Made by a program: the position numbers and the translations under genes
Notes under the pieces: generated by a model
Database searches by the model: none
The model's input: the letters and a program-made list of their open reading frames with translations, nothing else
Told to the model about the DNA's origin: nothing
Source of the DNA: an uncultured Desulfovibrionales bacterium
GTDB lineage: Bacteria > Desulfobacterota > Desulfovibrionia > Desulfovibrionales > Desulfonatronovibrionaceae
Reading direction: 5' to 3'
NCBI GenBank assembly: GCA_964614055.1
Contig: CAZTKE010000001.1
Location: forward strand, 6,349-70,348
DNA length: 64,000 nt
Part shown: positions 24,268 to 39,420 of the stretch, in pieces
Position numbering within the stretch: position 1 is the first letter of the stretch
Layout: each line of letters opens with the position of its first letter

Positions 24268-24810
24268 TCAAATGCGCGGCTTCGCGTAAAGCTCCCCGCC
24301 CAAGGAATCATTTATCACCAAGACCGGAAAATCCTTGACCTTTAACACCCGAATCGCTTCCGGCCCCAGATCCTCGTAAGCAATCACCTTGGCCTGCTGG
24401 ATACAGGAGGACAGAAGCGCCCCGGCCCCGCCGGTGGCCCCGAAATACACCGCAGTATTCTTCTTCAGGCTTTCCTTTACTTTTGCATCTCTCTTTCCCT
24501 TGCCTATTGTGGCCTTCACTCCGAGATCGTGCAGGCGTGGGGCATAGGTATCCATGCGATAACTGGTGGTCGGACCGGCCGAACCAATGGGGCGATCCGG
24601 AGGAGCCGGAGTCGGCCCCACATAATAAATCACCGCTCCCTGCAGAGGGAACGGCGGGTTCTCGCCATTTCCCAGACAGTCCATAAGCCTTTTGTGCGCC
24701 GCATCCCGGGCTGTGTACAAAAGCCCGGATAAAAGGACCTTGTCCCCGGATCTGAGTTTGCCCACATCATCATCACCGAGCGGTGTCTGCAGCCTGTATT
24801 CACTGTTCAT
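24268..24810 (-). CDS. Class I (Fe-S) fumarate hydratase, beta (C-terminal domain) subunit
   Basis: Translation matches the Fe-S hydro-lyase beta type (GDKVLLSGLLYTARDAAHKR, GPTTSYRMD, IGKG). Start MNSEYR overlaps the alpha-subunit stop by 1 nt (TAATG). Confidence 0.85.
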   Translation of the reverse strand: MNSEYRLQTPLGDDDVGKLRSGDKVLLSGLLYTARDAAHKRLMDCLGNGENPPFPLQGAVIYYVGPTPAPPDRPIGSAGPTTSYRMDTYAPRLHDLGVKATIGKGKRDAKVKESLKKNTAVYFGATGGAGALLSSCIQQAKVIAYEDLGPEAIRVLKVKDFPVLVINDSLGGELYAKPRI

Positions 24811-25646
24811 TATATCCTCACTTGTGCATGCCGGGCGGAATGACACTGGATATTAACCGCCAGGGGCAGACTGGCTATGTGGCACGGAGCCATATTTATC
24901 TTCACTCCCAGGGAAGTCACCTCCCCTCCCAGCCCCATGGGACCGATGCCCAGATTATTGATCCCGGCTAAAAGCTCCTCTTCCATTTTTGCCAGCTCCG
25001 GATCCGGATTTGTTTCCTCCAGGGAGCGGAAAAGGGCCTTTTTGGCCAGAATCGGGGCCATATCAAACGTCCCCCCGATGCCTAAGCCGACAATGGTCGG
25101 GGGACATGGATTGGGTCCGGCCTCGGCCACCCGGCGGAGGACAAAATCCTTTATCCCCGCCCAGCCCTGGGCCGGGGCAAGCATGGTCGCCCGGGACATG
25201 TTCTCGCTTCCTCCGCCCTTGGCCATGAAGCGGATAATAAAATCCCGGCCCGGAACCTGCTCCAGATGAATTATCGCCGGGGTGTTGTCCGTGGTATTTT
25301 TCCGGGTCAGAGGGTGGCAGGCGGATTTGCGCAAATATCCCCGGGAGTATCCCCGGCGCACCGCCTCATTCAGGGCCTTGTTCAGATCGCCCTTCAGACA
25401 GCACTCCTCGCCCATGTATACGAAAAAAACAGCCAGGCCGGTATCCTGGCATAAAGGAAGGCCGGTATCCTCAGCCATCCGGGCGTTTTCCAGGAGCTGA
25501 TGCAAAATATCCCGACCGGCCGGGCTTGTTTCCCTTTCCCATGCCCGGCCCAGGGCCTTTTTTACATCCGGGGGCAAAAACTTGTTGGAGTTGACCACGG
25601 CCTCGGCCACGGGCTCAATCAACGAATCCGCCAGAATCTCACGCAT
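24810..25646 (-). CDS. Class I (Fe-S) fumarate hydratase, alpha (N-terminal domain) subunit
   Basis: LPLCQDTGLAVFF, KGGGSEN and GIGGT blocks are typical of the fumarase/tartrate dehydratase alpha domain. Confidence 0.85.
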   Translation of the reverse strand: MREILADSLIEPVAEAVVNSNKFLPPDVKKALGRAWERETSPAGRDILHQLLENARMAEDTGLPLCQDTGLAVFFVYMGEECCLKGDLNKALNEAVRRGYSRGYLRKSACHPLTRKNTTDNTPAIIHLEQVPGRDFIIRFMAKGGGSENMSRATMLAPAQGWAGIKDFVLRRVAEAGPNPCPPTIVGLGIGGTFDMAPILAKKALFRSLEETNPDPELAKMEEELLAGINNLGIGPMGLGGEVTSLGVKINMAPCHIASLPLAVNIQCHSARHAQVRI

Positions 25647-26415
25647 CCCGCTTCCTCTTCTTCATTTTTCTGCTTTCCGTGCCGGGGATCATCCGCTTCA
25701 GGGCATGCGTACCCATCTTGCGCCGCAGATAACCCAACTGATCCTGCAGGGGAATATTCTTGGGGCAGACATCCTCGCAGGCCAAAAGTCCCATGCATCC
25801 GAAGATGCCCTGGTCCGTACCCACCACCTCAAAATAGTCCTCCGGAGAACGTTCATCCCGGGGATCGATAATGAATCTGGCAATTCTGTTCAGGGCAACC
25901 GCTCCCAGAAAATCCTCCCGCATCCGGGCGGTCGCGCAGGCGGCAATGCAGCAGCCGCATTCTATGCACCGGTCCAGTTCATATATCTCCTCGGCCACAT
26001 GGTTTTCCATGCGCTCTTCCGATGCATCAGGATCGAATTGTTTATCCGTATGCACCCAGGACTCAACGCGCTCATTCATGCCCCGGAACCATTTGCCGCT
26101 GTCCACGGAAAGATCGCCTATCAGCTCGAAGCCCGGAAGGGGCATAAGCGTTATCTGTTCCGGCATATCCGCGGTCTTGGTGTGGCAGGCGAGTTCGGGG
26201 CGGCCGTTTATTACCATGGCGCAGGAACCGCAGATCCCGGCCCGGCAGCAGAAATCAAACTGCAGGGACGGATCCTGCTCCTCCCGAATCCTGTTCAGGG
26301 CGATAAACAGGGTCATATTCTCGGTCTCGTCCAGATAAAAGGACTGCATCCGCGGTTTTGAGTCCGGGTCCCGGGGGTTGTATCTGAATATCTCCAAATT
26401 AAGCATCCTGACCAT
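25639..26415 (-). CDS. frdB: Fumarate reductase/succinate dehydrogenase iron-sulfur subunit
   Basis: 2Fe-2S CRAGICGSCAM, plus CIECGCCIAAC and C..ACEDVCP cluster motifs. Confidence 0.9.
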   Translation of the reverse strand: MVRMLNLEIFRYNPRDPDSKPRMQSFYLDETENMTLFIALNRIREEQDPSLQFDFCCRAGICGSCAMVINGRPELACHTKTADMPEQITLMPLPGFELIGDLSVDSGKWFRGMNERVESWVHTDKQFDPDASEERMENHVAEEIYELDRCIECGCCIAACATARMREDFLGAVALNRIARFIIDPRDERSPEDYFEVVGTDQGIFGCMGLLACEDVCPKNIPLQDQLGYLRRKMGTHALKRMIPGTESRKMKKRKRDA

Positions 26416-26418
26416 GTA

Positions 26419-28251
26419 TCAACTCCCGTCCTTATCCGCGCTTATGACCTGTGCCCCGCCGTATCCCCGGTCTCCGGGGGGCAACTCCACCACGCTTGTA
26501 TTCGGTTCATATTCCAGAATCGGTCTTTCCCCGCCCTCGGGCCAGAAAGCAAGAGTTCTAACCAGCCAATCCCGGTCGTTTCTGGCCGGATAATCCTCCC
26601 GGGCGTGCGATCCCCGGCTCTCGGTCCGGGCCAGGGCCCCGCAGGTAACACACAGGGCCAAACGAACCATACCCGGCAGGCGCAAAGCCAAAGACAGCTC
26701 CGGACTGGCTCCCCGGCCGCTGGAGCGCAAGCCCACCTGCCTGGAACGGGCGTGGATGTCCTGCAGTTTCTCCACCGCCAGCTTCAGATCCTTTTCATTG
26801 CGGAATATGCCCACCCGATCCATGAGCACGGACTGCATCTCGTTTCGGACCTGATACACGTTCTCCCGACCGTCCCCGGAAACGATATCCTTGATCCTTT
26901 CCCGTTCCCTTTTTACAAAATCGTCCACGATGCCGGTATCAAAGCTGATCTCTCGTTCTTTCAGAAACTCAACAATGTTTTCCCCGACCAGCATGCCGGC
27001 AACCACAGTCTCCGCCAGGGAATTGCCGCCCAGGCGGTTGAACCCGTGCAGATCCCAGCAGGATGCCTCTCCGGCGGCAAACAGCCCGGAAAGGCCGTAG
27101 GCATGGCCGTTTTTGTCCGTTCTGACCCCGCCCATGCTGTAGTGCTGCGTGGGCCGGACCGGAATCAGGTCCCGGGCCGGGTCCCGCCCCAGAAAATCCA
27201 CGCATATCTGATGCACTTCCCTGAGCTTGGTCTTTAAATGCTCTTCCCCCAAATGGCGGATATCCAGCCACAAATGATCCCCGTAGGAACTTTTTACTCC
27301 GAACCCCTTGCGGATATGCTCGGTCATGCGCCGGGCGACCACATCCCTGGAGGCCAACTCCGCCTTTTCCGGCTCATAATCGGGCATGAACCGGTGCTCG
27401 TTTACGTCCAAAAGAGTCCCGCCGTCCCCGCGGCAGCCCTCGGTTATCAGGATATCCGTGGGCACCAGCCCGGTGGGATGGAACTGCACCGCCTCCATGT
27501 TGCCCAAAGGCACCACTCCGGTATCCAGGGCCGCGGCCTGGGCGGAACCTTCATTTATGACCGCGTTGGTCGAGGCCCGGTATATGCGTCCGAAACCGCC
27601 GGAGGCGATGAGAGTGGCCTTGGAAAGATAAACGCGCAATTCTCCGTTTTTCATGTCCCTGGCCACCACTCCCAGGCAATTTTCCCCCTCATGGATGAAC
27701 GAAAGGGCCTCCACCCGGTCGTGCACTTCCACGCCGACCTGAACCGCTTTGTTGTCCATGGTGTACAGAACAGCATGTCCGGTCCCGTCGCTGCAGTAGC
27801 AGGCCCGCCATTTGGCCGTTCCCCCGAAATTGCGGGCGGTTATAAGCCCCCGGCTTTCCTCGGGCTCCTCCTTTTCCTTTTTTTCCCCGCCCTGATAGAA
27901 AAAGGACCTGCCCGGCTGAACCCGGTTCCAGGGCACGCCCCAAAAAGCGGTCTGCCGGATGGCCCGGGGGGCGTTCTCCACAAACATCCGGGCCACTTGC
28001 TGATCGCATCCCCAATCCGAGCCCTTGACCGTGTCCTGGAAATGGACATCCGGACAATCACCCCGGCCCTTTATGCAATTTCCGAGAGCGGCCTGCATCC
28101 CGCCCTGGGCAGCCGAGGAATGCGAACGCCTGGCCGGGACCAGGCTCAGGGCGATCACCCTGAATCCGGCCTCGGCCGCTTCTATGGCCGCCCGTTCCCC
28201 GGCCAGCCCGGCCCCGATGCACAGTAAATCGGTATAAATGGTTTGTGTCAT
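26419..28251 (-). CDS. frdA: Fumarate reductase/succinate dehydrogenase flavoprotein subunit
   Basis: FAD fold GAGLAGERAA, covalent-FAD context RSHSSAAQGGM, and catalytic HPTG / GGNSL blocks. Confidence 0.92.
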   Translation of the reverse strand: MTQTIYTDLLCIGAGLAGERAAIEAAEAGFRVIALSLVPARRSHSSAAQGGMQAALGNCIKGRGDCPDVHFQDTVKGSDWGCDQQVARMFVENAPRAIRQTAFWGVPWNRVQPGRSFFYQGGEKKEKEEPEESRGLITARNFGGTAKWRACYCSDGTGHAVLYTMDNKAVQVGVEVHDRVEALSFIHEGENCLGVVARDMKNGELRVYLSKATLIASGGFGRIYRASTNAVINEGSAQAAALDTGVVPLGNMEAVQFHPTGLVPTDILITEGCRGDGGTLLDVNEHRFMPDYEPEKAELASRDVVARRMTEHIRKGFGVKSSYGDHLWLDIRHLGEEHLKTKLREVHQICVDFLGRDPARDLIPVRPTQHYSMGGVRTDKNGHAYGLSGLFAAGEASCWDLHGFNRLGGNSLAETVVAGMLVGENIVEFLKEREISFDTGIVDDFVKRERERIKDIVSGDGRENVYQVRNEMQSVLMDRVGIFRNEKDLKLAVEKLQDIHARSRQVGLRSSGRGASPELSLALRLPGMVRLALCVTCGALARTESRGSHAREDYPARNDRDWLVRTLAFWPEGGERPILEYEPNTSVVELPPGDRGYGGAQVISADKDGS

Positions 28252-28360
28252 GCAATTCGCCTGGTTAAACTTGGTAGATTCTTCGGCATGCTCAATGGAT
28301 TTTCCCGCAATCAGTTTGCCGCAGATAATGCCCAGGAACCACTTGGTATGTATTCCACGG

Positions 28361-28999
28361 CTAAAAATAAAAAATACAAAGAGAGACCAAATCCAGTAAT
28401 ATAAAAAGAATGGTTGCTATAAAAACGGCTTTTTTCATCCCCGCCCGGTTAAAACGGCGGATGAATCCCCATTTGACACCGATGCGGTATATTCCCGCCC
28501 CCAGATGGGCAAAGACCAGAAAGACAAAAAGGAGATAAAACCAGACCCAGAGCCCCTGATGCATGAGGTGCACCGATTTTTCCGCGGTTATGGGCAGATC
28601 GTTTAAAAGCACCCACATGTGCACCGAGCCCATTAAAAGGACAAGCATTCCGCTTACCGCCTGCACTACCCACATCCAGGTATCGGCATGCATGATCAAA
28701 AGGGCGTGTCTGGAAACTACCGCCTGCTCCCGGCTGGTAAAGGGTATCTTGCGCGCGGCTAGAACAAAATGGAAAAGAAAGACAAGACCGATAAACACTC
28801 CTCCGATTTGGGCCAGATAAGTGGACTCAAAGAATCCGGCCAGGGAGTCAAACGCTTTCGCCCCGAAAATAACACTGGCGATAAAAAAGGTATGCAAAAG
28901 CATGAACAAAGCCAAAAACAGACCGGAGAGCATCTGCATCCAGTCCAGCCCGGCGGCCCGGCCGGACGCCCCCGGATTCAAGCCGGTTAGGTGCGCCAC
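28361..28999 (-). CDS. frdC: Fumarate reductase membrane cytochrome b subunit (type B, five-TM style)
   Basis: Hydrophobic 212-aa protein with conserved-looking His in TM helices. It sits first in the frd operon. Confidence 0.7.
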   Translation of the reverse strand: MAHLTGLNPGASGRAAGLDWMQMLSGLFLALFMLLHTFFIASVIFGAKAFDSLAGFFESTYLAQIGGVFIGLVFLFHFVLAARKIPFTSREQAVVSRHALLIMHADTWMWVVQAVSGMLVLLMGSVHMWVLLNDLPITAEKSVHLMHQGLWVWFYLLFVFLVFAHLGAGIYRIGVKWGFIRRFNRAGMKKAVFIATILFILLDLVSLCIFYF

Positions 29000-29139
29000 T
29001 TCTTATCCTCCCGGATTATATTTAAAATCAAAAACATGCGTTCAAATGAGCAGCCTATAATCCTGTTTGCCGCAAAAGACAACAGCCGGGACAGCCCCGA
29101 TTTTTCCGGACCGAACAGCAATCAAGTCCGCAGCCGGGT

Positions 29140-29904
29140 CTAGAAGTCCAGCTCCAGGCCGATCGGGCAATGATCCGAGCCCATCACCTGCTGCTCTATC
29201 CAGGCGTTTTTCACCCTGGGGACGAGCTCCTCGGAGACAAAGAAATAGTCAATGCGCCACCCGGCGTTCCGGGCCCGGGCCCCGAATCTGTATGTCCACC
29301 AGGTGTATTCCCCCGGCTGGGAGTTGAACATGCGAAAGGTGTCCCTGTATCCGGCGGCAATAAATTTATCCAGCCATTCCCTTTCCTGGGGCAGAAAACC
29401 GGAGCGGTCGGAATTGGCCTTGGGATTTTTCAGATCGATTTCAGTATGCGCGGTATTGAAATCCCCGCAGACCACGATGGGTTTTTCCTTGCGCAGTTTC
29501 TGGACGTAATCCAGAAAGACGTCGTAATATCCCATCTTGAAATCCAGTCTTTCCTGGCTCATCTGTCCGTTGGGGAAATAAATGTTGAAAAAATAAAAAT
29601 TCTCGAATTCCATGCGGATGAGACGGCCTTCGCCGTTGTATTTCTCATCCGGAAGCCCCCGGTCCACCTTGAGCGGCTCTGTATTGTAAAAACAGGTCAC
29701 ACCGGAATATCCCTTTTTCTTGCGCGAAGGGTTCCAAAAGGAATGATAACCGTCCGGCTCCCTTTCTTCGGGGTTTAGCTGATCCGGTTCCATCTTTATC
29801 TCCTGCAGGCCGACTACATCCGCTGCAGCCGAAGAGAGCCAGTCCCAGAACCCTTTCTTGACCACTGCCCGAAAGCCGTTCACGTTCCATGAATAAAGAC
29901 GCAT
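29140..29904 (-). CDS. xthA: Exodeoxyribonuclease III
   Basis: MRLYSWNVNG, LQEIK, GDFNTAH and SDHCP motifs of the EEP/ExoIII family. Confidence 0.92.
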   Translation of the reverse strand: MRLYSWNVNGFRAVVKKGFWDWLSSAAADVVGLQEIKMEPDQLNPEEREPDGYHSFWNPSRKKKGYSGVTCFYNTEPLKVDRGLPDEKYNGEGRLIRMEFENFYFFNIYFPNGQMSQERLDFKMGYYDVFLDYVQKLRKEKPIVVCGDFNTAHTEIDLKNPKANSDRSGFLPQEREWLDKFIAAGYRDTFRMFNSQPGEYTWWTYRFGARARNAGWRIDYFFVSEELVPRVKNAWIEQQVMGSDHCPIGLELDF

Positions 29905-29907
29905 GGT

Positions 29908-30579
29908 TCAGGACACTCCCTTTAATGCCGCCTTCAGGCCGCCATCAATCAAATCTATGCGCACATAACCGCCATTTCCGGCCATTCCCGGATTTATAAC
30001 CGGACAATTACCGATCCAGTCCTCGGCAACAGCCTCGTGGATATGACCGGTCACGCACACATCCGGCTGAACCACCTCGATAAATTCCCGCACGGAGGGA
30101 CTGCCCACATGCGTTCCCGAACCCAGGGCGTCGGTAAGCGTATCCAGGGGCGGAGTATGAGTAACAAAGATCAATTTTCCCGCCAGCTCCCGGCATTTAT
30201 CCTGAGCAGCCTTGAGCCAGGAGGAAAGCTCTTTTTCCTCCACTTCCAGGGGAGTGCCAAAGGGAGTGGGCGTGGAATACCCGACCGCGAACAGATAAAC
30301 ATCCCTGTCCAGGGAAACAAGCCTGTTGTGTATGTCCAGGCCTTCTTCCTCCAGCCACTTCCCGGCAGCCGGGGTATCCATGTTCCCCACCTGGGCCAGG
30401 ACGCGGGAATTTTTTCCCCGGATGCGGTCGACTATGCGTTCTGCATCTTCCCGGCCGCCGTGGTTGGTCAAATCCCCGGAGACAATTATTCCCTCAGCAC
30501 CGGGCAATTCCTTATTGCTTTCCACAAAGGACAAATCCGTATGAATATCGCCAAGAGCGATCCAGTATTTATCAGCCAT
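29908..30579 (-). CDS. Calcineurin-like metallophosphoesterase
   Basis: ALGDIH, SGDLTNHG, THTPP and GHIHE metal-ligand blocks. Confidence 0.8.
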   Translation of the reverse strand: MADKYWIALGDIHTDLSFVESNKELPGAEGIIVSGDLTNHGGREDAERIVDRIRGKNSRVLAQVGNMDTPAAGKWLEEEGLDIHNRLVSLDRDVYLFAVGYSTPTPFGTPLEVEEKELSSWLKAAQDKCRELAGKLIFVTHTPPLDTLTDALGSGTHVGSPSVREFIEVVQPDVCVTGHIHEAVAEDWIGNCPVINPGMAGNGGYVRIDLIDGGLKAALKGVS

Positions 30580-30667: not shown

Positions 30668-32986
30668 TCACGATTTTTCCGCTTTATCCGCCTTGAATAC
30701 CTGCACTCCCTGCGGGGAATCAACAAGCCTGAAGCCGCGCTCAAGCAGCTTATCCCTTATATCGTCCGCCCGGGAGAAATCCTTTTTTTGCCTGGCCTCT
30801 TCCCTCCGGGCGATCATTTCCCGGATCTCGCTGCTCAGACGGGAGAAAACAAAGGGCACATTCCCCCAATCCAGAATGCACAGGACCTTATCCATTTCCT
30901 TCAGGGCATTTATGAGCACCTTTTGTTCTTCGGCGCTCATCCCGCTTTGATCCACCAGCTTGTGTACGGTCCGGGTCAACCGGAAAAGGACCGGCCAAAA
31001 GCCCTGCAGGCTCAAGTCCTCTTCCATGCTTTTTTTTAACTCTGATTTGAGATCAAAAACCGCCTGATCCACCTCCGATCTGAGCCCGCCTTCTTTTTCC
31101 GGGCGCAAGGCGTTTAATTTGACCAGCATGTCCTGGACCCGCTTCCAGTTGCGATGCCACATATGCAGGTTCTTTTCCCCGGAAACCAGTGGCTTGTGAT
31201 AGGAAGTGGACAAAAACCACATGCGCAGGGGCGGAAAGCCGCCGCAGTCAACGGCCAGATCGCGCAGATCCCGTTTTTCCTCGGTTCCGGATTCGTCCAC
31301 CACCGGATAGGAAACCGCCCAGGCCTGGGCCTGGATGCGCAAAGCGGAACTCCAGATGCTGCGCAGGTTGTCCAGATGAGGGAATATATGCGGCTGCCCG
31401 CCCAGGACCAAAAGTATCTGCCCCAAATGATCAGCCGCGGCAGCAGCCTGCTGCAAATACCAGGTGGGACGGACGTTGCCCCATTTGGTCTTGACCACGC
31501 TGCCTTCCTTTAAATCCTGGAGAGTGGCCCGCTTGAGCAGGGTGAAATCCCGGGGATTACCCTTGTCATAGCTTTCCAGATCCACTGTCTTACCGGAAAG
31601 CAACTTTTCCGGATCCATCCGGGCCAGGCCGCCATATTCATTATCCCGGCGCACATCGTAATAAACCGAGCGCAAACGCTCATAAGCAAGCCCCTTGGAA
31701 AGGAGACGGTCGCACAGGTCAACGGCCGTATCCATGCACCCGGCATCAGAGACGAAGCGGACCTGTTCATGCACCCCGAGATCCGCGGCCAGGGCATAGA
31801 CTTCCTCAAGTTTTTGGCGACTGAACGCATCCCTGGAGAGCCCCATGCCGCGTCCGGCCTGAAGAGTGCGGTCGTCAAAATCAGCCATGCCCAAAACAGC
31901 GGCCGGCCGCAAACCCTTTTGGTCCAGATACCTCTTCAGCACATCCAGAAAAATTATCCTGCGCCATGCTTCCGGGCAGCCGATATTGTCCAGACTGGGG
32001 CCGAAGCTGAAAAGACCGGCTTCCCGGGACTCGGATTCCAGATAAACCTTCTTGCGGGAGGCGATGTCCCACAGGGCCACGCCCTGCCGACTGGGTTCGA
32101 CAAAAAGTGAAGTACTCAGATAGCGATCTCCCCCGTCCGGAAAGATGGTCACGATTTTTCCGTTTTCAATCTCCCCGGCCAGTTTCAGGGCCCCGGCCAG
32201 AGCGGCGCCGGAACTCATACCCACAAAAATGCCTTCCTCCCGGGCCAATCTGCGGCATGTCTCAAATGCATCTTCATCCTGGACATGGATGATCCCGTCC
32301 AGAAGCTTTTTGTCATATATGCCCGGAGGATAGGATTCGTGCATATTTTTAAGCCCCTGGATCTTGTGTCCGGCATAAGGCTCGATCCCGATTACCTTGA
32401 TCCGGGGATTGTATTCCTTGAGCCGCTTGTTCAGGCCCATCACGGTTCCGGTAGTCCCCATGCATGCCAGGACGTGGGTAACCTCTCCTGCGGTATCCTC
32501 CCATACCTCCGGAGCTGTTCCTTGATAATGGGCATCAATGCTGGCCGGGTTGTTGTATTGATCCATAAGCACATATTTTTCCGCCTCCTCCCGCCCCAGC
32601 CGGTAGGCCTCCTCTATGGCCCCGTCCGTACCCAGATGACCGGGTGTAAGCTCTATTTCCGCGCCGTAAGCCCGCATTATCCGCTTTCTTTCCTCGGAGG
32701 CGGAAGAAGGCATAATCAGCTTTAGTTTGTATCCCTTAATCGCACAAACCATGGCCAGCCCGATACCGGTATTGCCGGAAGTGGCCTCCACCACGGTCTT
32801 GTCCGGGGTAAGCTCCCCGGACCTCTCCGCGGCCTCGATCATGCTCAGGGCCACCCGATCCTTGATGGAACCACCGGGGTTATTCATCTCCAGCTTGGCC
32901 TGTATGGATACGTCCACGTACGGATTAAGCCGGGAAATATGTACCAAGGGGGTTTTACCTATAAGTTCGATTACGCTGTCTTTCAA
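30668..32986 (-). CDS. Fusion protein: cysteine synthase (CysK/CysM-type PLP enzyme) plus CysRS-like domain with degenerate catalytic motifs
   Basis: aa 1-295 have GGSIKDR (PLP Lys), TSGNTG and GMSSGA. aa ~303-772 are collinear with class I cysteinyl-tRNA synthetase (ADFDDRTL, LLSKGLAYE, NPRDFTLLKR, GGQPHIFPHLDN, LRMWFLSTSYHKPL, C-terminal ADDIRDKLLERGFRLVDSPQG). HIGH, KMSKS and most Zn ligands are replaced. Confidence 0.8.
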   Translation of the reverse strand: MKDSVIELIGKTPLVHISRLNPYVDVSIQAKLEMNNPGGSIKDRVALSMIEAAERSGELTPDKTVVEATSGNTGIGLAMVCAIKGYKLKLIMPSSASEERKRIMRAYGAEIELTPGHLGTDGAIEEAYRLGREEAEKYVLMDQYNNPASIDAHYQGTAPEVWEDTAGEVTHVLACMGTTGTVMGLNKRLKEYNPRIKVIGIEPYAGHKIQGLKNMHESYPPGIYDKKLLDGIIHVQDEDAFETCRRLAREEGIFVGMSSGAALAGALKLAGEIENGKIVTIFPDGGDRYLSTSLFVEPSRQGVALWDIASRKKVYLESESREAGLFSFGPSLDNIGCPEAWRRIIFLDVLKRYLDQKGLRPAAVLGMADFDDRTLQAGRGMGLSRDAFSRQKLEEVYALAADLGVHEQVRFVSDAGCMDTAVDLCDRLLSKGLAYERLRSVYYDVRRDNEYGGLARMDPEKLLSGKTVDLESYDKGNPRDFTLLKRATLQDLKEGSVVKTKWGNVRPTWYLQQAAAAADHLGQILLVLGGQPHIFPHLDNLRSIWSSALRIQAQAWAVSYPVVDESGTEEKRDLRDLAVDCGGFPPLRMWFLSTSYHKPLVSGEKNLHMWHRNWKRVQDMLVKLNALRPEKEGGLRSEVDQAVFDLKSELKKSMEEDLSLQGFWPVLFRLTRTVHKLVDQSGMSAEEQKVLINALKEMDKVLCILDWGNVPFVFSRLSSEIREMIARREEARQKKDFSRADDIRDKLLERGFRLVDSPQGVQVFKADKAEKS

Positions 32987-33251
32987 AATGCTGTCCTTTT
33001 AGGTCCAAAAATCAATTGAAAACAAGCCAATATAAAAGTACAAAAACAGAATATAAGTTAACCCATTTTTTGAGCACAGGCAATTAAGGACAAGCCGGGT
33101 CCTATAAATGAGGTTAACACGACAGGTATAAAAACAAGGTCGGGAGATAAGGCTGCAGTATCCAATCGAAATGCGCGGATAATACACCGGCACGAGCCAA
33201 TCCGCTTTTTGGATTAATCCCCAAAACACGACTGCACACAGAGATAAAGAC

Positions 33252-34394
33252 ATGACCCAGCAGGCACACCAACCGTTCCCGGAAAAGATCCCGGGGGAAG
33301 TAAGCGAAAAAGATGAAAAATTCTTTCTTTTTGCCACCTCGGAAGATCTGACCCCGGAACAGATCAAAAGGATCAAGGCCCCGACCAGGATAGTCCCGGA
33401 GCAAAGAGCGGCCCTGGCCACTCACTGGCATCCGGAATTCGTGCCTGTTGACCTTGCAGTAGAACGGATGCAGGCCATGTTCCCCAATCTTGAAGAGGCA
33501 CTGATCATTCCCACTCAGCACAATGAACTTCTGAGTTACAGGGGATACAGCGGTGTGGAGGTGGATTGCTACTCCAAGGGATTCAACCAGAAAGTGCAGC
33601 TTCTGCTGCATTTTGAAAAAGACCGGGTGGAGAATGCTTCCCGGCTCAGGTCCATTCTGGAGCATACCCGGAAATACAGGGCCACCCAGCTATTTGAATT
33701 CATCCGGGCCGTAAACGATGAAAACGGAAACAAAGTAGAAAAGGCGGTGCGGGAAACCGGGGCCGGAAAAGAAATAGTGAATTTTACCCGAATTTATGTG
33801 CGAAAAATTGAAAGACTAATCCAAAAACACCACTCTTCCCTGCCTGCAAACAGCCTGAAGAACAAATTGCTGCGCAATTTCTTCCATCATCTGCGTCAGG
33901 ATTATCCGGATCCGTTCATAGACAGGGTGCAGATATTTCTGAAAACAATCAAAAACATGGTCAAGGCGGATTTCAATCTGGACTATTTTTATCGCACCTC
34001 GGAGATAATAGAAGAGGCCCGCCTGCACGGAGGAGGAATCGTGATCCCCCATCCGGAACAATTCTGGCCCATCCTGCTTGCAGAATACGACGTGGACGGC
34101 TACGAGGTATGGAACCCCCAATCACAGAGATATACAGAATTCCTCATATCCGTGGTCAATCGCAAAAATAAAGAAAAAAAACACCTGCAAAAGGAAATCC
34201 TCATCTTTATGGGAGACGACACGCACATGGGGGAAAAGGCAATGCATGCCGCCTATCAGGACAAGAAAAAAGCGGAACGGGAAATCGGCTGCCAACCGGC
34301 CTGGGAGGATCCGAATATCAAAAGGAAACTTGACTCCGCCGGGATAACCCGGACAAGTGTAATTGAGAGGTACAAACAGCGTTTAGCCGGCTGA
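33252..34394 (+). CDS. Divergent PHP-like metal-dependent phosphoesterase (first gene of the GAK-type cassette)
   Basis: ATHWHPEF (HxH), GGIVIPHPEQ and IFMGDDTHMGE follow the order of PHP-domain ligand motifs, with a long helical insert between them. Confidence 0.45.
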   Translation: MTQQAHQPFPEKIPGEVSEKDEKFFLFATSEDLTPEQIKRIKAPTRIVPEQRAALATHWHPEFVPVDLAVERMQAMFPNLEEALIIPTQHNELLSYRGYSGVEVDCYSKGFNQKVQLLLHFEKDRVENASRLRSILEHTRKYRATQLFEFIRAVNDENGNKVEKAVRETGAGKEIVNFTRIYVRKIERLIQKHHSSLPANSLKNKLLRNFFHHLRQDYPDPFIDRVQIFLKTIKNMVKADFNLDYFYRTSEIIEEARLHGGGIVIPHPEQFWPILLAEYDVDGYEVWNPQSQRYTEFLISVVNRKNKEKKHLQKEILIFMGDDTHMGEKAMHAAYQDKKKAEREIGCQPAWEDPNIKRKLDSAGITRTSVIERYKQRLAG

Positions 34395-34441
34395 GCAGAC
34401 GGCTAGAACTGTCCAAAAAAATTTACAAGGCTGGAGAATGC

Positions 34442-34720
34442 ATGTCCAAGAAACAAAATTTCTTTCACGAATCCATTCAGGACACACAGTCAATAAAAAA
34501 ATTCCTGGAGGCCCTGCAAGAAGGACTGGAAAAAGGCAGCCTGCATCTCTCCGGGCCATCGGAAAACATTGACCTTTCCCCGCAAGGTCTTTTGAATTTT
34601 ACTGTAACCGCCCGGAAAAAGGAGGATTCCAACAAAATATCCCTTGAAATCGAATGGAAAGACTCCAAGGACAGCGAACTCACATCCACCGCTCCAGTAC
34701 AGATAACCTCATCCGGATAA
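34442..34720 (+). CDS. Amphi-Trp domain mini-protein (92 aa)
   Basis: GGAG RBS 6 nt upstream. Alternating polar/non-polar strand KISLEIEWKDSKD around the single Trp. No enzymatic motif. The family name is from memory. Confidence 0.6.
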   Translation: MSKKQNFFHESIQDTQSIKKFLEALQEGLEKGSLHLSGPSENIDLSPQGLLNFTVTARKKEDSNKISLEIEWKDSKDSELTSTAPVQITSSG

Positions 34721-34729
34721 AAACAATTC

Positions 34730-36376
34730 ATGATCTCTTTTGAAACAATACAGGAAAACTTTTATTTCATGGTCCTGGAAGTAAAAAATCAGGTATACAA
34801 CACCTTTGATTTCCTGAACTCCCCGGAACCGGAGCTGTACGAGAAAATAATCTCCAAGGACGACTACATAGACAACCTCAAAAATGTAATTGAAAGCAAA
34901 TGCTTTTCCAGGATTCTGCCCTCTTCCGGACTAATAAAAAAAGAAATCAATAAAATCCGGGCAATTCATACCATAACCGTGAATCTGGAAAGGATCGGGG
35001 ACTTTTGCGTGAATGTAGCCGAGCAGATGAAATACCTGAGCGACTACAAGGTCCTGTACGGATTTGATTATGATGAAATGCTCACGGAAATAGTTCGGGG
35101 GCTTTCCAATATAAATGCGGCCATGCGCAAAAACGACCTGTCCCTTACCCTGGATATCTGTCGCACGGAAAACAACCTGGACAAGCTATACAAAATCCAC
35201 CTCGACCGCATCCTGGAAGAACTTTCCGAAAACCGGACCCATCCCGGGGATTATGTCACCATACTTTTCATGATCCGGTACCTGGAACGCATAGGCGACT
35301 CCCTCTTGAACATTGGGGAAGCCATCCTATTCAATATCATTGGAGAAAAGATCAAAATCAACCAGTTCCAGGCCCTGCAGCAGAATCTGGATCAGAGCGG
35401 ATTTGACGCTCCCATATCCGAGGTGGACTTCCAGGGGATATGGGGAACAAGGTCCGGATGCCGGATAGGAAGAATTGAGGACAAGCAGCATCCGGACAGC
35501 GCCCTGGGAAGCATTTTCAAGGAGGGGTCCAGGGAAAAAATATCCAGGGAAAGGGAAAACCTTAATCTCTGGCAGGAAAAATTCCCCGGGCTAGTGCCCA
35601 GGGTATTCAGTTATCAGCAAAGTAAATCCGAAGACAAGGCCTCCATGCTGATTGAATTCCTCCCCGGGTGCACTCTGGACGAGGAAATACTCACCTCTGA
35701 GCTGGACACGCTAAAAATAGCCTATGCCGGTCTTGAAAAAAAACTGACCCGGATATGGGAGGGCACGCTCAGAAAGGAAAAAGCTCCCACAAACTACGTG
35801 GAACAATTTCGAGCCAGGATGGATTCGGTCCTCCAGGTCCATCCGGGATTCAGCCGCAGGGAGCAAACCATACAAAGCGTCCGGATAAGATCACTGGAAA
35901 ACCTTCTAAAAAAAGCGGCCCACCTGGAGACAAGGCACCCCTCCCCTGTAAGTGTTTTCATTCACGGGGATTTCAATATAAACAATATTGTCTATGAACA
36001 CCGGGAGAATACCGTGCATTTCATAGACCTGCACCGTTCCCGGCAATATGATTACATCCAGGATGTATCCGTGTTTCTGATCTCCAATTTCCGGATGCCA
36101 ATATTTGATTCCAGTCTGCGGCGGCGCCTTAACTGGGTGACTAGAAAATTTTATTCCTTTGCCCGGGCATTCGCGGAAAAACACGGGGATACCACGTTTG
36201 ATGCCAGATTGTCCCTGGCCCTGGCCAGATCGTTTTATACCTCCACCCGTTTTGAACTCAACCATTTATTCGCAAAAGAGATGTTCCTTCGGGCTCAATA
36301 TCTTCTGGATCAACTATTGGCTCCGGAGCGGAAATGGTCCGAATTCAGGATGCCGCAAGAAATCCTTTTTTACTGA
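34730..36376 (+). CDS. PhoU-domain / APH-type phosphotransferase (kinase) fusion protein
   Basis: Two PhoU-like helices are present (ERIGDFCVNVAEQM, ERIGDSLLNIGEAI). The C-terminal half has a kinase core (FIHGDFNINNIV ... VHFIDLHRS) as in aminoglycoside/choline kinases. Confidence 0.7.
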   Translation: MISFETIQENFYFMVLEVKNQVYNTFDFLNSPEPELYEKIISKDDYIDNLKNVIESKCFSRILPSSGLIKKEINKIRAIHTITVNLERIGDFCVNVAEQMKYLSDYKVLYGFDYDEMLTEIVRGLSNINAAMRKNDLSLTLDICRTENNLDKLYKIHLDRILEELSENRTHPGDYVTILFMIRYLERIGDSLLNIGEAILFNIIGEKIKINQFQALQQNLDQSGFDAPISEVDFQGIWGTRSGCRIGRIEDKQHPDSALGSIFKEGSREKISRERENLNLWQEKFPGLVPRVFSYQQSKSEDKASMLIEFLPGCTLDEEILTSELDTLKIAYAGLEKKLTRIWEGTLRKEKAPTNYVEQFRARMDSVLQVHPGFSRREQTIQSVRIRSLENLLKKAAHLETRHPSPVSVFIHGDFNINNIVYEHRENTVHFIDLHRSRQYDYIQDVSVFLISNFRMPIFDSSLRRRLNWVTRKFYSFARAFAEKHGDTTFDARLSLALARSFYTSTRFELNHLFAKEMFLRAQYLLDQLLAPERKWSEFRMPQEILFY

Positions 36377-36395
36377 AAATAAAAAGAGGCAATAA

Positions 36396-37271
36396 ATGCG
36401 CATAGGAGTTGTCGGGACCATCGGCGGATGGTCCTCGGAAAAACTGGCGGACGCGGTGCAAGACCTCACCGGATACCGGCTTTTAGTGGATATGGATCGG
36501 TTTTCCCTTGATCTCGATTCTAAAAAGGCCTTTTTTAAGGACATGGACCTGAGCCGGCTGGATGCCCTGATCATAAAGAAAGTCGGATCCAAATACTCCT
36601 CCAGTCTGCTGGATCGTCTGGAGTGCCTGCGTTTTTTGCACGAATCCGGCCTGCCCGTATTTTCCGCGCCGGGCAGCATAATGCGGGTTCTAAACAGACT
36701 CAGCTGCACGACAACCATGCGCCTGGCCGGCATTCCCATGCCGGAAACTACTGTTACCGAGGACATAGACACAGCCCTAAAGGCGGTGGAAAAATACGGC
36801 CAGGCCGTATTTAAGCCCCTGTATTCCACCAAGGCCCGGGGTATGGCTTTGATACAGGCGGGGCGGGGAGCCCGGGAAAAAATAGCGGATTTTAACAGAA
36901 ATAATTCGATAATGTATATCCAGAAAAAGATTGAACTAAACGGCAGGGATCTGGGACTGGCTTTTCTGGGCGGCAAATACCTGGCCACCTACTCCCGCTT
37001 AAAACAGAATTCCTCCTGGAACACGAGCACGGTAAACGGCGGCAAATACGCCTTCTGCGAACCAAGCCGGGAGAGCATTGACGTGGCGGAAAAAGCCCAG
37101 TCGCTGTTTTCCCTGGATTTTACATGTGTGGACGTTGCACAGACCGCAAGCGGCCCGGTTGTATTTGAAGTCTCCGCCTTCGGTGGTTTCAAGGGAATTC
37201 AGGAAGCCTGCGGACTGGACGCGGCAAAATTGTATGTCCAGTATGTACTAAAAAAACTGCACTCGGGCTGA
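36396..37271 (+). CDS. RimK-like ATP-grasp ligase
   Basis: 291 aa. Layout and blocks (VFKPLYSTKARGM, MYIQKKIE, DFTCVDVA..GPVVFEVSAFGGFKG) resemble the RimK/GshB-type ATP-grasp. Confidence 0.7.
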   Translation: MRIGVVGTIGGWSSEKLADAVQDLTGYRLLVDMDRFSLDLDSKKAFFKDMDLSRLDALIIKKVGSKYSSSLLDRLECLRFLHESGLPVFSAPGSIMRVLNRLSCTTTMRLAGIPMPETTVTEDIDTALKAVEKYGQAVFKPLYSTKARGMALIQAGRGAREKIADFNRNNSIMYIQKKIELNGRDLGLAFLGGKYLATYSRLKQNSSWNTSTVNGGKYAFCEPSRESIDVAEKAQSLFSLDFTCVDVAQTASGPVVFEVSAFGGFKGIQEACGLDAAKLYVQYVLKKLHSG

Positions 37272-37276
37272 ATCTT

Positions 37277-38473
37277 ATGTGCGCAAATATATGGATGAAC
37301 CGGGAAATCCGGATCCCGGACGGATATAAACTGGCCCGGTTCAAGGGCTCGCCCGAGCTTGGCCCGAAAATCCTTTTTTTCAGCGGCGGTTCCGCACTGA
37401 AAGGCGTCAGCCAAAAAATCACCGCCTACACCCACAACTCCGTACACATAATTACTCCCTTTGATTCCGGCGGGAGTTCTGCGGTTCTGCGCAAGGCATT
37501 CGATATGCCCGCTGTCGGGGATATCCGCAACAGACTTTTGGCTCTGGCGGACAAAACCATGACCGGAAACCCGGAAATTTTCGCTCTGCTTGGGCACAGA
37601 CTGCCGGCCGATGAAAACCAGGAAGAACTCAGGCGGACACTCCGGGATATGGTCCGGGGCAAACACGGTTTAGTTCGTTCCGTTCCCGAGCCAATGCAGA
37701 AAATAATCCGGCATTATCTGGAAATTTTCTCTGAAAACATGCCTGCAGATTTTGACCTGCGCGGGGCAAGCATCGGCAATCTCGTCCTTACCGGGGGATA
37801 CCTGGAAAACAAAAGGAACCCGGATTCGATCATCTATATCTTTTCCCAATTGGTGAAAGCAAAAGGCACGGTTCGCCCGGTGGTTAACCGCAGCCTGCAC
37901 CTGGGAGCGCGCTTGGAAGACGGGGAAATCGTTAGCGGACAACACAGAATAACCGGCAAGCAAACCCCCAAAATCAGTCAGCAGATAAAGGACATATTCC
38001 TGGTGCGGGATCTGAACAGCAAACAGCCTGTAAAAGCCGATATCCGAGAAGAAATAGCCCTGGAAATAAGCCGGGCGGATCTGATTTGTTATCCGATGGG
38101 CAGTTTTTTCACCAGCATCCTGGCTAATCTGCTCCCCTCAGGAGTAGGCCGGGCCATAAAAAATGCGCGCTGCCCCAAAATATTTATCCCCAATACCTTT
38201 TTTGACCCGGAATGCTATGCGCTGCCCCCGGCAAATCAGATAGATCGCCTTTTGGAGATTTTGGGCCGCGACTGCCCCGGGTCCGGCCAAAAAACCGATT
38301 TTTTGGATTTAATTCTTCTAAACCGGGACTATTCCCTGTACCCGGGCGGGGTAGACAGGGAAAAGATCTCCGGCTTGGGATCAAGAATCCTGGAATACGA
38401 TCTGGTCACCGAACAATCTAAACCGGGGATTGATCCGGAAAGACTCTGCGAAGTACTGCTTTCCCTGTGCTAA
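37277..38473 (+). CDS. CofD/YvcK-like (2-phospho-L-lactate transferase family) protein
   Basis: FFSGGSALKG, FDSGGSSAVLRK, VGDIRNRLLAL, IGNLVLTG and YPMGSFFTSILANLLP match the CofD/YvcK signature blocks in order. Confidence 0.75.
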   Translation: MCANIWMNREIRIPDGYKLARFKGSPELGPKILFFSGGSALKGVSQKITAYTHNSVHIITPFDSGGSSAVLRKAFDMPAVGDIRNRLLALADKTMTGNPEIFALLGHRLPADENQEELRRTLRDMVRGKHGLVRSVPEPMQKIIRHYLEIFSENMPADFDLRGASIGNLVLTGGYLENKRNPDSIIYIFSQLVKAKGTVRPVVNRSLHLGARLEDGEIVSGQHRITGKQTPKISQQIKDIFLVRDLNSKQPVKADIREEIALEISRADLICYPMGSFFTSILANLLPSGVGRAIKNARCPKIFIPNTFFDPECYALPPANQIDRLLEILGRDCPGSGQKTDFLDLILLNRDYSLYPGGVDREKISGLGSRILEYDLVTEQSKPGIDPERLCEVLLSLC

Positions 38474-38538
38474 ACTATCCCGGAACCTAAAATCGCACCG
38501 GGAAAACAAAAATTGCGGACATTGAGGAGCAACCGTTC

Positions 38539-39420
38539 ATGCGGGACCAGAAAAAGGCTTATATATTTGGACTTCTCACCGTTTTAATCTGGTCAACGGT
38601 GGCCTCGGCCTTCAAGATAAGCCTGAGGTACCTGGATGTGGTCCAGCTGCTCTTCTACTCCAGCCTGACCTCCCTATTCTGTCTTTTTATCCTGGCTGTC
38701 TTCTTTCACGGCCCTCGCTTTACCCGCCTCTTTTCCCGCGAGGACATTATGCGCTCGGCCTTCCTGGGACTTCTCAATCCCTTTATGTATTATCTGGTCC
38801 TGTTCAAGGCCTACGACCTTTTGCCCGCCCAAGAGGCCCAGCCGCTCAACTATACCTGGGGCATAACCATCACCATTCTTGCAGTCCCTCTTCTGGGCCA
38901 GAAAATAACCGGGAAAAGATTCGCGGCCATTGTAATCAGCTACCTGGGTGTTGTTGTCATTTCCACGCACGGCACTCCATGGGACATGAATTTTTCTGAC
39001 CCATGGGGCGTTTTTTTGGCCCTTTTCAGTACCATAATCTGGGCTCTTTACTGGATCGCCAATACCAGGGACAACCTGCCGGCCATTTTGCGCCTGCTTT
39101 TGAATTTTCTGGCGGGAACTGTCTATCTGGGCATTCTTTTACCTTTTGTCTCCACTCCGCTTATTTTCTCCTTCAAGGGACTTGCCGGGGCAATTTACGT
39201 GGGACTTTTTGAGATGGGCATCACTTTTGTCTTCTGGCTGCAGGCCCTTAAATATTCGAAAACCACGGCCCAGGTGAGCAATCTTATTTATCTCTCCCCG
39301 TTTCTGTCCCTTGTATTCATCCACTACCTGGTCGGGGAAAAAATCCTGCCCTCCACCCTAGTCGGCCTGGTTTTGATCCTGTCCGGGCTGATCATGCAAA
39401 ACAGGGTGAAAAACACTTAA
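38539..39420 (+). CDS. EamA/DMT family permease
   Basis: 10-TM protein with duplicated EamA halves. It lies 65 nt downstream of the cassette on the same strand. Confidence 0.8.
   Translation: MRDQKKAYIFGLLTVLIWSTVASAFKISLRYLDVVQLLFYSSLTSLFCLFILAVFFHGPRFTRLFSREDIMRSAFLGLLNPFMYYLVLFKAYDLLPAQEAQPLNYTWGITITILAVPLLGQKITGKRFAAIVISYLGVVVISTHGTPWDMNFSDPWGVFLALFSTIIWALYWIANTRDNLPAILRLLLNFLAGTVYLGILLPFVSTPLIFSFKGLAGAIYVGLFEMGITFVFWLQALKYSKTTAQVSNLIYLSPFLSLVFIHYLVGEKILPSTLVGLVLILSGLIMQNRVKNT

Follow-up and report, generated by a model that had tools for sequence, protein, structure and literature searches.

Introduction

For cysteinyl-tRNA synthetase (CysRS), a 2022 review of synthetase paralogues lists two derived types only, CysRS* and MshC (PMC9437257). 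CysRS* is without the anticodon-binding domain and carries PTVS as its CP1 motif; it adjoins selC*/selB*, and its presumed substrate is a special tRNA (PMC5389517). Among other aminoacyl-tRNA synthetases (aaRSs), HisZ is an inactive HisRS paralogue that gives HisG allosteric feedback control (PMC9437257), and in methanogens the SepRS-SepCysS-SepCysE transsulfursome physically couples cysteine formation to tRNA-Cys (PMC8762117). Here we analyze a gene from an uncultured Desulfovibrionales bacterium, located in a 64,000-nucleotide stretch of DNA (the window; assembly GCA_964614055.1, contig CAZTKE010000001.1, positions 6,349 to 70,348). Judged from its sequence, the encoded protein is almost certainly an active cysteine synthase of the CysM type, to which a catalytically dead CysRS is fused. 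A full-text literature search found no description of a CysM-CysRS fusion, and the dead domain of this fusion is a third CysRS-derived type. The explanation we favor, with a probability of roughly 45%, is that an active cysteine synthase carries a non-catalytic, tRNA-Cys-binding module that would act as its sensor or tether.

Results

Architecture of the fusion protein

The gene is a single uninterrupted open reading frame (ORF) of 772 aa on the minus strand (Table 1), as the initial annotation of the window had stated, and the strings quoted in that annotation (GGSIKDR, TSGNTG, GMSSGA, NIGCPEAW, TWYLQQA, HLDNL and ADDIRDKLLERGFRLVDSPQG) are all found in the protein. An AAGGA Shine-Dalgarno sequence lies 7 nt 5′ of the TTG start (32986), and the N-terminus lines up with the starts of homologues (M..D(L/V)L.LIG.TPLV). 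Pfam assigns PALP to aa 7-284 (2.2e-75), tRNA-synt_1e to aa 340-543 (2.6e-23) and CysS_C to aa 717-754 (4e-5), and the two domains are joined by a linker of ~8 residues. The AlphaFold2 (AF2) model of the fusion has a predicted local distance difference test (pLDDT) score of 87.1 and a predicted template modeling (pTM) score of 0.78; its two lowest-confidence stretches, aa 467-476 and aa 214-221, both fall on highly conserved sequence. A structure search with the full-length model gave matches to the N-domain alone (TMq ≤0.37 for the PDB matches listed).

The N-terminal half scores 374.5 bits against TIGR01136 (cysKM) over aa 7-295, passing the cut-off of 344.15, and does not reach the CysM equivalogs TIGR01138 (378.8, cut-off 394.2) and NF008735 (360.7, cut-off 413). 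Its closest PDB sequences are the Salmonella and E. coli CysM entries 2JC3, 2V03 and 2BHS (~1e-82), and the AF2 N-domain superposes on 2BHS and 2JC3 with TM scores of 0.94-0.95. The CysK/CysM motifs had been described as intact; every catalytic signature is present here and invariant in 58 relatives, namely the pyridoxal 5′-phosphate (PLP)-binding K42, the carboxylate-binding (Asn) loop TSGNTG (T69-G74), the PLP-phosphate loop G177-T181 (G177/T178/G180/T181) and S258/G260/A261, in which S258 faces the pyridine nitrogen (PLP N1). The low-confidence stretch aa 214-221 (32324-32347) is the CysM active-site loop, set within the invariant block QGLKNM.ESYPPG. An invariant Lys213 may stand at the position of E. 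coli Arg210 and M. tuberculosis Arg220; this tentative assignment carries no weight in the arguments below. Median identity of the relatives to the window protein is 69.8% over the N-domain versus 43.4% over the C-domain, which marks the N-domain as the more constrained. The N-domain thus looks like a catalytically competent, CysM-type, PLP-dependent cysteine synthase, predicted from these sequence features to carry out beta-replacement of O-acetyl- or O-phosphoserine by sulfide or thiosulfate.

Loss of catalytic sites in the CysRS-like domain

The last 474 aa align end to end with residues 13-456 of E. coli CysRS (1LI5; E 5.6e-25), so that the homology runs through the C-terminal tail, as had been claimed. 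A profile of the family matches CysRS at 1.3e-53 over residues 3-457, with solved CysRS structures matched over their full length at 1e-53 to 1e-55 and MshC matched at 7.6e-13 over its catalytic part alone. On this profile evidence the C-domain is derived from a true CysRS and not from MshC. Full-length CysRS matches were also obtained to 3TQO and 8QHP, and the AF2 secondary structure agrees. The 17 PDB entries that the family profile matches at E ≤1 include no chain named BshC (bacillithiol cysteine ligase), the presence of BshC in the library being unconfirmed.

Site states were counted in 114 full-length relatives using E. coli CysRS numbering. Alignment to 1LI5 upholds the motif replacements first read by eye, with CPEA in place of HIGH, TWYLQQA in place of GWHIECS, HLDNL in place of HHENE and no KMSKS. 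The HIGH position is followed directly by W341-R342-R343, a hallmark of the family. At the GWHIECS site W205 is kept by all 114 relatives, E208 is replaced by Q in all 114, and C209 has become M, H, Q, V, I or L. Among the remaining zinc ligands, H234 is kept (111/114), E238 is always L, F, V, I or M (114/114), and Cys28 is P, M, I or F. The window protein itself has F328, Q513, H537 and L541 at Cys28, Cys209, His234 and Glu238, retaining one ligand of four, and the three lost ligands are hydrophobic or variable across the relatives. Both KIIK lysines are gone in the 114 relatives, and no KMSKS-like string (K[MLIF][SG][KR][ST]) occurs in the window protein or its clade. G29, W205 and the D-x-D-D motif are still conserved in that clade.

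A class I synthetase without these sites can neither form an aminoacyl-adenylate nor select cysteine via zinc. With HIGH and KMSKS gone and three of the four zinc ligands replaced, we infer that the C-domain is a pseudo-synthetase in which ATP binding, zinc-cysteine binding and aminoacylation have been lost; the same reading had been offered for the window protein, and the 114 relatives extend it to its clade.

The C-domain could instead still be an enzyme. It might be the housekeeping CysRS with unusual motifs, or else a cysteine ligase that, like MshC, depends on ATP, the second of which had been suggested as a thiol-ligase function. Its CysRS homology is full-length, and closely related fused forms pass the cysS equivalog cut-off and bear the NCBI name cysteine--tRNA ligase. 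However, 114/114 clade members lack both HIGH histidines, three of the zinc ligands, the KIIK lysines and the entire KMSKS loop, the window protein scores 149.8 bits against TIGR00435 (cysS) where the cut-off is 340, and the MshC match is weak and confined to the catalytic part. Class I synthetase chemistry requires an ATP site, and MshC is no exception, requiring both ATP and zinc sites. We consider a surviving enzymatic activity extremely unlikely, and the MshC-like proposal is not supported, given the missing sites. Moonlighting as a CysRS persulfide synthase (CPERS) was also considered; in work of Akaike et al. from 2017 this activity reportedly depends on the KIIK and KMSKS lysines, and it was rejected because both sets of lysines are absent.

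Retention of the tRNA-side modules

Module conservation in the 114 pseudo-synthetases was compared with that in 73 canonical CysRS, each set being normalized to its own mean. Within the dead domain, conservation is highest in CP1 (1.36× mean, versus 1.10 in canonical CysRS), and the stem-contact fold (1.11 versus 0.91) and helical bundle (0.89 versus 0.63), with the blocks RMW(L/F)LS.SY.KPL, MW.RNW..VQ and EDDLSL..FWP.LF, are also relatively elevated. The catalytic second half of the Rossmann fold has moved the other way (1.07 versus 1.38), as has the KMSKS loop (0.58 versus 0.95). The anticodon-binding domain stands at 0.98 in both sets. Strong purifying selection therefore acts on the tRNA-side modules.

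Published contact data were compared at four anticodon contacts and one CP1 motif. In the E. coli CysRS-tRNA complex the anticodon is contacted by Arg427, Trp432, Asp436 and Arg439, with Arg427 bonding G34 (PMC13449415). The equivalents in the 114 relatives are R/K in 111, and F/Y, D and R in every one, and the forms from Desulfobacterales and Syntrophobacteraceae have all four as well. In CysRS of D. tiedjei, CP1 reads the first acceptor-stem base pair via an MSGA motif (PMC5389517), and at this motif the family carries an invariant S-x-G-K-T-V-D. This CP1 loop, aa 467-476 (31550-31585, TVDL..Y.K), is the sole low-confidence stretch of the C-domain (pLDDT <50). Such behavior, invariant in sequence yet modeled with low confidence, would be expected if the loop became ordered only once its ligand is bound.

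Combined, these features suggest that the dead domain has probably retained tRNA binding. A tether or sensor on tRNA-Cys had been proposed from the window protein; conservation of the anticodon domain, its contacts and CP1 speaks for that proposal, and the binding itself we infer.

The main alternative is that the dead domain binds no RNA and serves as a structural, oligomerization or folding scaffold, maintained through constructive neutral evolution, or as a protein docking surface. The short linker and the confident, fixed arrangement in the model (pTM 0.78) fit such a role, the family-invariant tryptophans and hydrophobic replacements at the old zinc and ATP sites resemble a plugged, fold-stabilizing pocket, and the gene context is without RNA-related genes. 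A scaffold would nevertheless not be expected to hold a distal anticodon-binding domain at the relative constraint of a working CysRS, nor to keep all four anticodon-contact residues across three orders. Other aaRS paralogues that quit using the anticodon, MshC and CysRS* among those of CysRS, have lost that domain (PMC5389517, PMC9437257). We regard the scaffold explanation as unlikely.

Retained tRNA-binding modules beside a beta-replacement enzyme with intact motifs could also point to chemistry on tRNA itself, in which the dead CysRS would be a tRNA-Cys adaptor. A tRNA-bound precursor would be converted to Cys-tRNA in SepCysS-like fashion, or an aminocarboxyethyl group would pass from the PLP-aminoacrylate onto a tRNA nucleophile. 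The SepRS/SepCysS/SepCysE transsulfursome, which links cysteine synthesis to tRNA-Cys, gives this idea a precedent (PMC8762117). Against it, the free-amino-acid site, including the TSGNTG loop that holds a free alpha-carboxylate, is invariant throughout, which argues that the substrate is a free amino acid; the CCA end would be kept off the PLP site by the defunct CysRS pocket; and no mischarging enzyme is linked to the gene. To our knowledge no such tRNA modification exists. The tRNA-linked cysteine chemistry raised in the initial annotation is accordingly disfavored by the invariant carboxylate loop, and we consider it very unlikely.

Distribution of the fusion

The identical 772-aa protein is recorded on 17 metagenomic contigs. 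A search with the C-terminal half returned >200 relatives, almost all of 745-820 aa with both Pfam domains, the named ones all being Desulfovibrionales. When one genome per species was scanned with two family-specific peptide patterns, at least 584 species-level genomes, belonging to Desulfovibrionales, Desulfobacterales and Syntrophobacterales, proved to carry the fusion, and a second protein search gave 1339 clusters (90% identity) at E ≤1e-30. The Desulfobacterales and Syntrophobacteraceae relatives were matched at 32-36% identity. Nearly all related loci with enough upstream DNA contain an ORF of ~745-850 aa that starts with the CysM domain. A frameshift, a pair of separate genes or an assembly artefact, which had been named as a check on the fusion, is ruled out by the 17 identical contig copies and by the fused ORF in nearly all loci. 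Spread over three orders, and with many family-specific residues invariant, the dead domain is under selection.

The sole apparent stand-alone form on a long contig is the 446-aa CysRS-like P0362. It is called on a long-read metagenome contig (L084, 4061-6341) where the two halves of the fusion lie in different frames, likely through an indel error, together with a spurious antisense gene over the CysM half. No canonical cysS, cysK or cysE was found within the window or in the fetched locus flanks. In databases the fusion proteins are variously named “cysteine synthase”, “cystathionine beta-synthase” or “cysteinyl-tRNA synthetase”.

Graded decay of the synthetase half

A profile search of 1.84 billion representative proteins gave scores that run continuously from family members to ordinary 470-aa CysRS, and motif states were read in the best 150 matches and in the fetched loci. 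The 768-aa fusion P0147 (MFW6014224.1), from a Nanoarchaeota metagenome-assembled genome and named cysteine--tRNA ligase, has HIGN, GWHLECS, FPHHQNE and KMSKS, all canonical (cysS 517 bits). It nests among ordinary CysRS in a rough neighbor-joining tree and is therefore probably an independent fusion. Two deltaproteobacterial fusions, P0133 (783 aa, 451 bits) and P0285 (782 aa, MBL6975143.1, 419 bits), have H(L/I)G(N/L) and KMSRS, and the zinc site of P0133 is complete. From these motifs, P0147, P0133 and P0285 may be bifunctional enzymes that both make cysteine and charge tRNA-Cys.

Fusions of the Desulfobacterales type (L078 and L061, with cysS scores of 419 and 410 bits) keep Cys28, Thr68, GWHIEC, FPHHEN and DDDFN with a degenerate HIGH. 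HIGH variants in this type include HLGQ, DLGH and NLGT, KMSKS is mostly gone, and the pocket residues C28, T68, W205, C209, H234 and in some members E238 are kept. Members of this type are L061, L062, L064, L065, L067, L068, L070-L072, L074-L078, L080 and L081; given their cysS scores of 410-419 bits, pipelines may name such fusions cysteine--tRNA ligase. In the Syntrophobacteraceae type (L066, 254 bits) and in the Desulfovibrionales type, which includes the window protein, the zinc ligands are lost too. Arg-Arg after the HIGH position, NPRDFTLLKR and WGNVRP are common to all Desulfobacterota forms. The stand-alone CysRS-like proteins P0138 (468 aa, 58-member cluster), P0145 (484 aa, on a 269-kb contig) and P0144 also have Arg-Arg after HIGH, with KMSRS or no KMSKS loop, and fall between canonical CysRS and the fused forms in the rough tree.

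The motif states along these graded forms imply that loss began with the ATP motifs and reached the cysteine/zinc site afterwards, in at least two lineages, while no lineage lost the tRNA-side modules. The window protein appears to lie at the decayed end of a series leading through near-canonical deltaproteobacterial CysM-CysRS fusions, and the near-canonical fused forms suggest that the ancestral benefit was the coupling of cysteine synthesis with tRNA-Cys charging.

This series also bears on whether the C-domain senses a small molecule (cysteine, O-acetylserine, a nucleotide or a cysteinyl-adenylate-like ligand) and not tRNA. The Desulfobacterales type keeps the whole cysteine/zinc pocket while its ATP motifs decay, which fits binding without catalysis; W205, G29 and D-x-D-D persist in the clade of the window protein; and HisZ offers a precedent (PMC9437257). 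In the window clade, however, three of the four zinc ligands have become hydrophobic, so that thiolate-zinc recognition of cysteine is lost, and the fourth pocket position is variable. The loss of HIGH and KMSKS makes nucleotide binding unlikely, and a small-molecule sensor leaves the retention of the anticodon-binding domain unexplained. We find it improbable.

Gene neighborhood

All ORFs of 84 loci were clustered. A metallophosphoesterase gene follows the fusion in the window as well as in nine related loci from the Desulfonatronovibrio/Desulfonatronospira clade, with xth next in all but one. It is absent from the loci of other clades and is likely an operon partner in this clade only. After xth come fumarate reductase FrdCAB and a two-subunit fumarase on the same strand (window 24268-30579, minus strand). 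Desulfonatronospira thiodismutans (L001, 10328-16518) has the same order, with stop/start overlap across the fusion, metallophosphoesterase and xth genes. A phosphoesterase and a 3′-end nuclease beside a putative tRNA-binding protein are curious, yet clade-specific.

Other clades have other neighbors: a divergent MptE-like/Maf gene in Desulfovibrionaceae, a YchF-like GTPase gene in Desulfohalobiaceae and a 342-aa gene in some Desulfobacterales. The first of these, a 590-aa MptE-like/Maf-type (flagellin glycosylation-like) gene, lies divergently upstream in L002 (6038-7801) and ~29 Desulfovibrionaceae loci (Maridesulfovibrio, Pseudodesulfovibrio, Solidesulfovibrio, Humidesulfovibrio and Desulfocurvus), with a PAP2 phosphatase beyond it in several.

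In the window, a complete GAK cassette (33252-39420, plus strand) is divergent from the fusion gene, 265 bp away as had been noted, and its GAK identification rests on TIGR04356 and TIGR04357 scores above their cut-offs (Table 1). A functional link between cassette and fusion is not supported, the adjacency being absent from the related loci examined.

Two kinds of tRNA call were seen near the fusion. A tRNA-Ser pair (GCU, UGA) lies on the opposite strand downstream of it, at 0.3 to ~5 kb, in four Desulfobacterales loci (L061 7717-7933, L072 6685-6895, L077 12446-12732 and L081 9174-9387), probably as inherited synteny. A 77-nt ARAGORN call of tRNA-SeC (TCA) in Solidesulfovibrio alcoholivorans (L051 8183-8259, ~780 bp downstream) sits in GC-rich, coding-like DNA under long ORFs and is probably a false positive, though of some note because deltaproteobacteria have a selC*-type tRNA-Cys.

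Table 1 Features of the fusion gene and its neighbors, in window coordinates.
Feature	Position	Strand	Basis
Whole ORF, CysM-type cysteine synthase + degenerate CysRS	30668..32986	-	Stop codon 30668-30670
Shine-Dalgarno AAGGA (32994-32998); TTG start (32984-32986)	32984..32998	-	Direct reading
CysM-type cysteine synthase domain, fold-type II PLP enzyme, aa 1-298	32093..32986	-	PALP, TIGR01136
PLP-binding lysine K42 codon (GGSIKDR)	32861..32863	-	Invariant, 58 relatives
CysRS-like Rossmann core + CP1 insertion, aa 299-586	31229..32092	-	tRNA-synt_1e; alignment to 1LI5, 8QHP
HIGH position, C337-P338-E339-A340	31967..31978	-	Alignment; His at neither position in 114 relatives
CP1 domain, aa 431-507, blocks GLAYE.LRSVY.DV.RD..YG, GKTVDL..Y.K.NPRDFTLLKR, WGNVRP	31466..31696	-	Invariant columns
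GWHIECS position (Trp205, zinc ligand Cys209), TWYLQQA, aa 508-514	31445..31465	-	Alignment
HHENE position (zinc ligands His234, Glu238), HLDNL, aa 537-541	31364..31378	-	Alignment
KMSKS-loop replacement region, aa 559-586, variable length and sequence	31229..31312	-	Least conserved module
Stem-contact fold + helical bundle, aa 587-715	30842..31228	-	Alignment to corresponding CysRS regions
C-terminal alpha/beta anticodon-binding domain, aa 716-765	30692..30841	-	CysS_C 4e-5; E. coli residues 415-456
R732/F737/D741/R744 stretch (E. coli Arg427/Trp432/Asp436/Arg439)	30755..30793	-	Alignment
Metallophosphoesterase, 223 aa, 88 bp 3′ of fusion	29908..30579	-	Pfam Metallophos
Exodeoxyribonuclease III (xth), next gene in same direction	29140..29904	-	TIGR00633 310 bits
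GAK cassette: 380-aa protein without family match	33252-34394	+	
GAK cassette: Amphi-Trp protein	34442-34720	+	
GAK cassette: PhoU-APH kinase fusion	34730-36376	+	
GAK ATP-grasp enzyme	36396-37271	+	TIGR04356 441.7 bits
GAK CofD-like protein	37277-38473	+	TIGR04357 516.5 bits
GAK cassette: EamA transporter	38539-39420	+	

Discussion

In the mechanism we propose, the dead CysRS domain would bind tRNA-Cys by its anticodon and acceptor arm and, with tRNA bound, would act as a sensor or tether on the attached cysteine synthase, so that cysteine output would depend on how much tRNA-Cys is present or on its charging. C-terminal regulatory domains are common among fold-type II PLP enzymes, as in IlvA and cystathionine beta-synthase. 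Regulation of the synthase by tRNA binding, argued by analogy, is a tentative proposal, and the specific form in which the dead domain is a receptor for uncharged tRNA-Cys that switches the synthase on is doubtful.

Several observations weigh against a tRNA-binding module. The canonical Arg of CP1 (GARV) has become Thr (GKTV) family-wide, the conserved Arg and Asp at anticodon-contact positions could be structural instead, and the partner of the invariant CP1 blocks might instead be a protein, a small molecule or a second subunit's CysM domain. The genomic setting adds nothing in its favor: no neighbor is common to the whole family across the 84 loci and context is kept within sub-clades only, which removes guilt-by-association support; no Rfam match (riboswitch, T-box) was found in the 5′ leader of the window gene or of 11 other loci; and no tRNA-Cys gene lies near the fusion in 56 loci.

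Synthetase-like pseudo-enzymes that regulate metabolism make up a small group whose members, such as HisZ and the GCN2 HisRS-like domain, have all been informative. If the dead domain reads tRNA-Cys, it would provide a direct, protein-level link between amino-acid supply and tRNA state in bacteria. Were it a receptor for uncharged tRNA-Cys, it would be a bacterial, single-polypeptide, amino-acid-specific counterpart of GCN2, in which a biosynthetic enzyme reads the charging of its own tRNA without a transcription factor, riboswitch or alarmone; in the Desulfobacterales forms, which still have the zinc site, the module may combine signals from free cysteine and tRNA-Cys. The graded series from active-looking to dead fusions is a ready system for studying the change from synthetase to pseudo-enzyme. 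The near-canonical fused forms are also mislabeled as housekeeping ligases, which could distort metabolic reconstructions of Desulfobacterota.

Compared with E. coli CysS (1LI5, 1U0B), the fusion has the same order of Rossmann fold, CP1, stem-contact fold, helical bundle and alpha/beta anticodon-binding domain, and keeps Trp205, His234, D-x-D-D, NPxDF, WGxxRP and the four anticodon contacts. It differs in lacking HIGH, KMSKS, the KIIK lysines and three of the four zinc ligands, in sitting behind a cysteine synthase and, set against canonical CysRS, in a shift of constraint from the catalytic core to CP1. With CysM (O-acetylserine sulfhydrylase B; 2BHS, 2JC3, 2V03) it shares the lysine that binds PLP, the Asn and phosphate loops and the Ser facing PLP N1, but it carries an extra 474-aa C-terminal domain and scores just under the CysM equivalog cut-off. 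We know of no characterized CysM with such a domain. IlvA and cystathionine beta-synthase likewise place a fused, effector-binding C-terminal domain after a PALP core, although their domains, ACT-like or CBS (Bateman) modules, take small-molecule ligands and do not have a synthetase fold.

P0147, P0133 and P0285 have the same two-domain order and similar length (768-783 aa) and differ in their canonical or near-canonical synthetase motifs. MshC (mycothiol cysteine ligase, TIGR03447; 3C8Z, 8HFM) is likewise a CysRS-derived paralogue with a non-translational role, but it is an active ligase with ATP and zinc/cysteine sites and without the anticodon-binding region, the reverse of the fusion. CysRS* of Desulfobacterales (Mukai et al. 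2016, PMC5389517) is a CysRS paralogue from the same bacterial group, unlike the fusion in that it is not joined to a cysteine synthase; its existence indicates an unusually elaborate tRNA-Cys biology in these bacteria. The transsulfursome, which operates in sulfide-rich anaerobes, offers, by analogy, a possible rationale for an ancestral CysM-CysRS fusion, although its proteins are unrelated, SepRS being class II and the PLP enzyme fold-type I, and its chemistry is carried out on tRNA.

The HisRS-like domain of GCN2 is a dead synthetase domain that binds uncharged tRNA and switches the attached kinase. It is the model for the sensor mechanism proposed here, and differs in being eukaryotic, class II, not tRNA-specific and coupled to a kinase output, with no homology to the fusion. 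By analogy, HisZ would be the closest functional counterpart, since in both cases an inactive synthetase paralogue is physically joined to the enzyme that makes its cognate amino acid. HisZ is a class II, separate subunit that has no anticodon-binding domain and senses the free amino acid, whereas the module of the fusion is class I and covalently attached, and has kept the anticodon-binding domain and lost the amino-acid (zinc) site.

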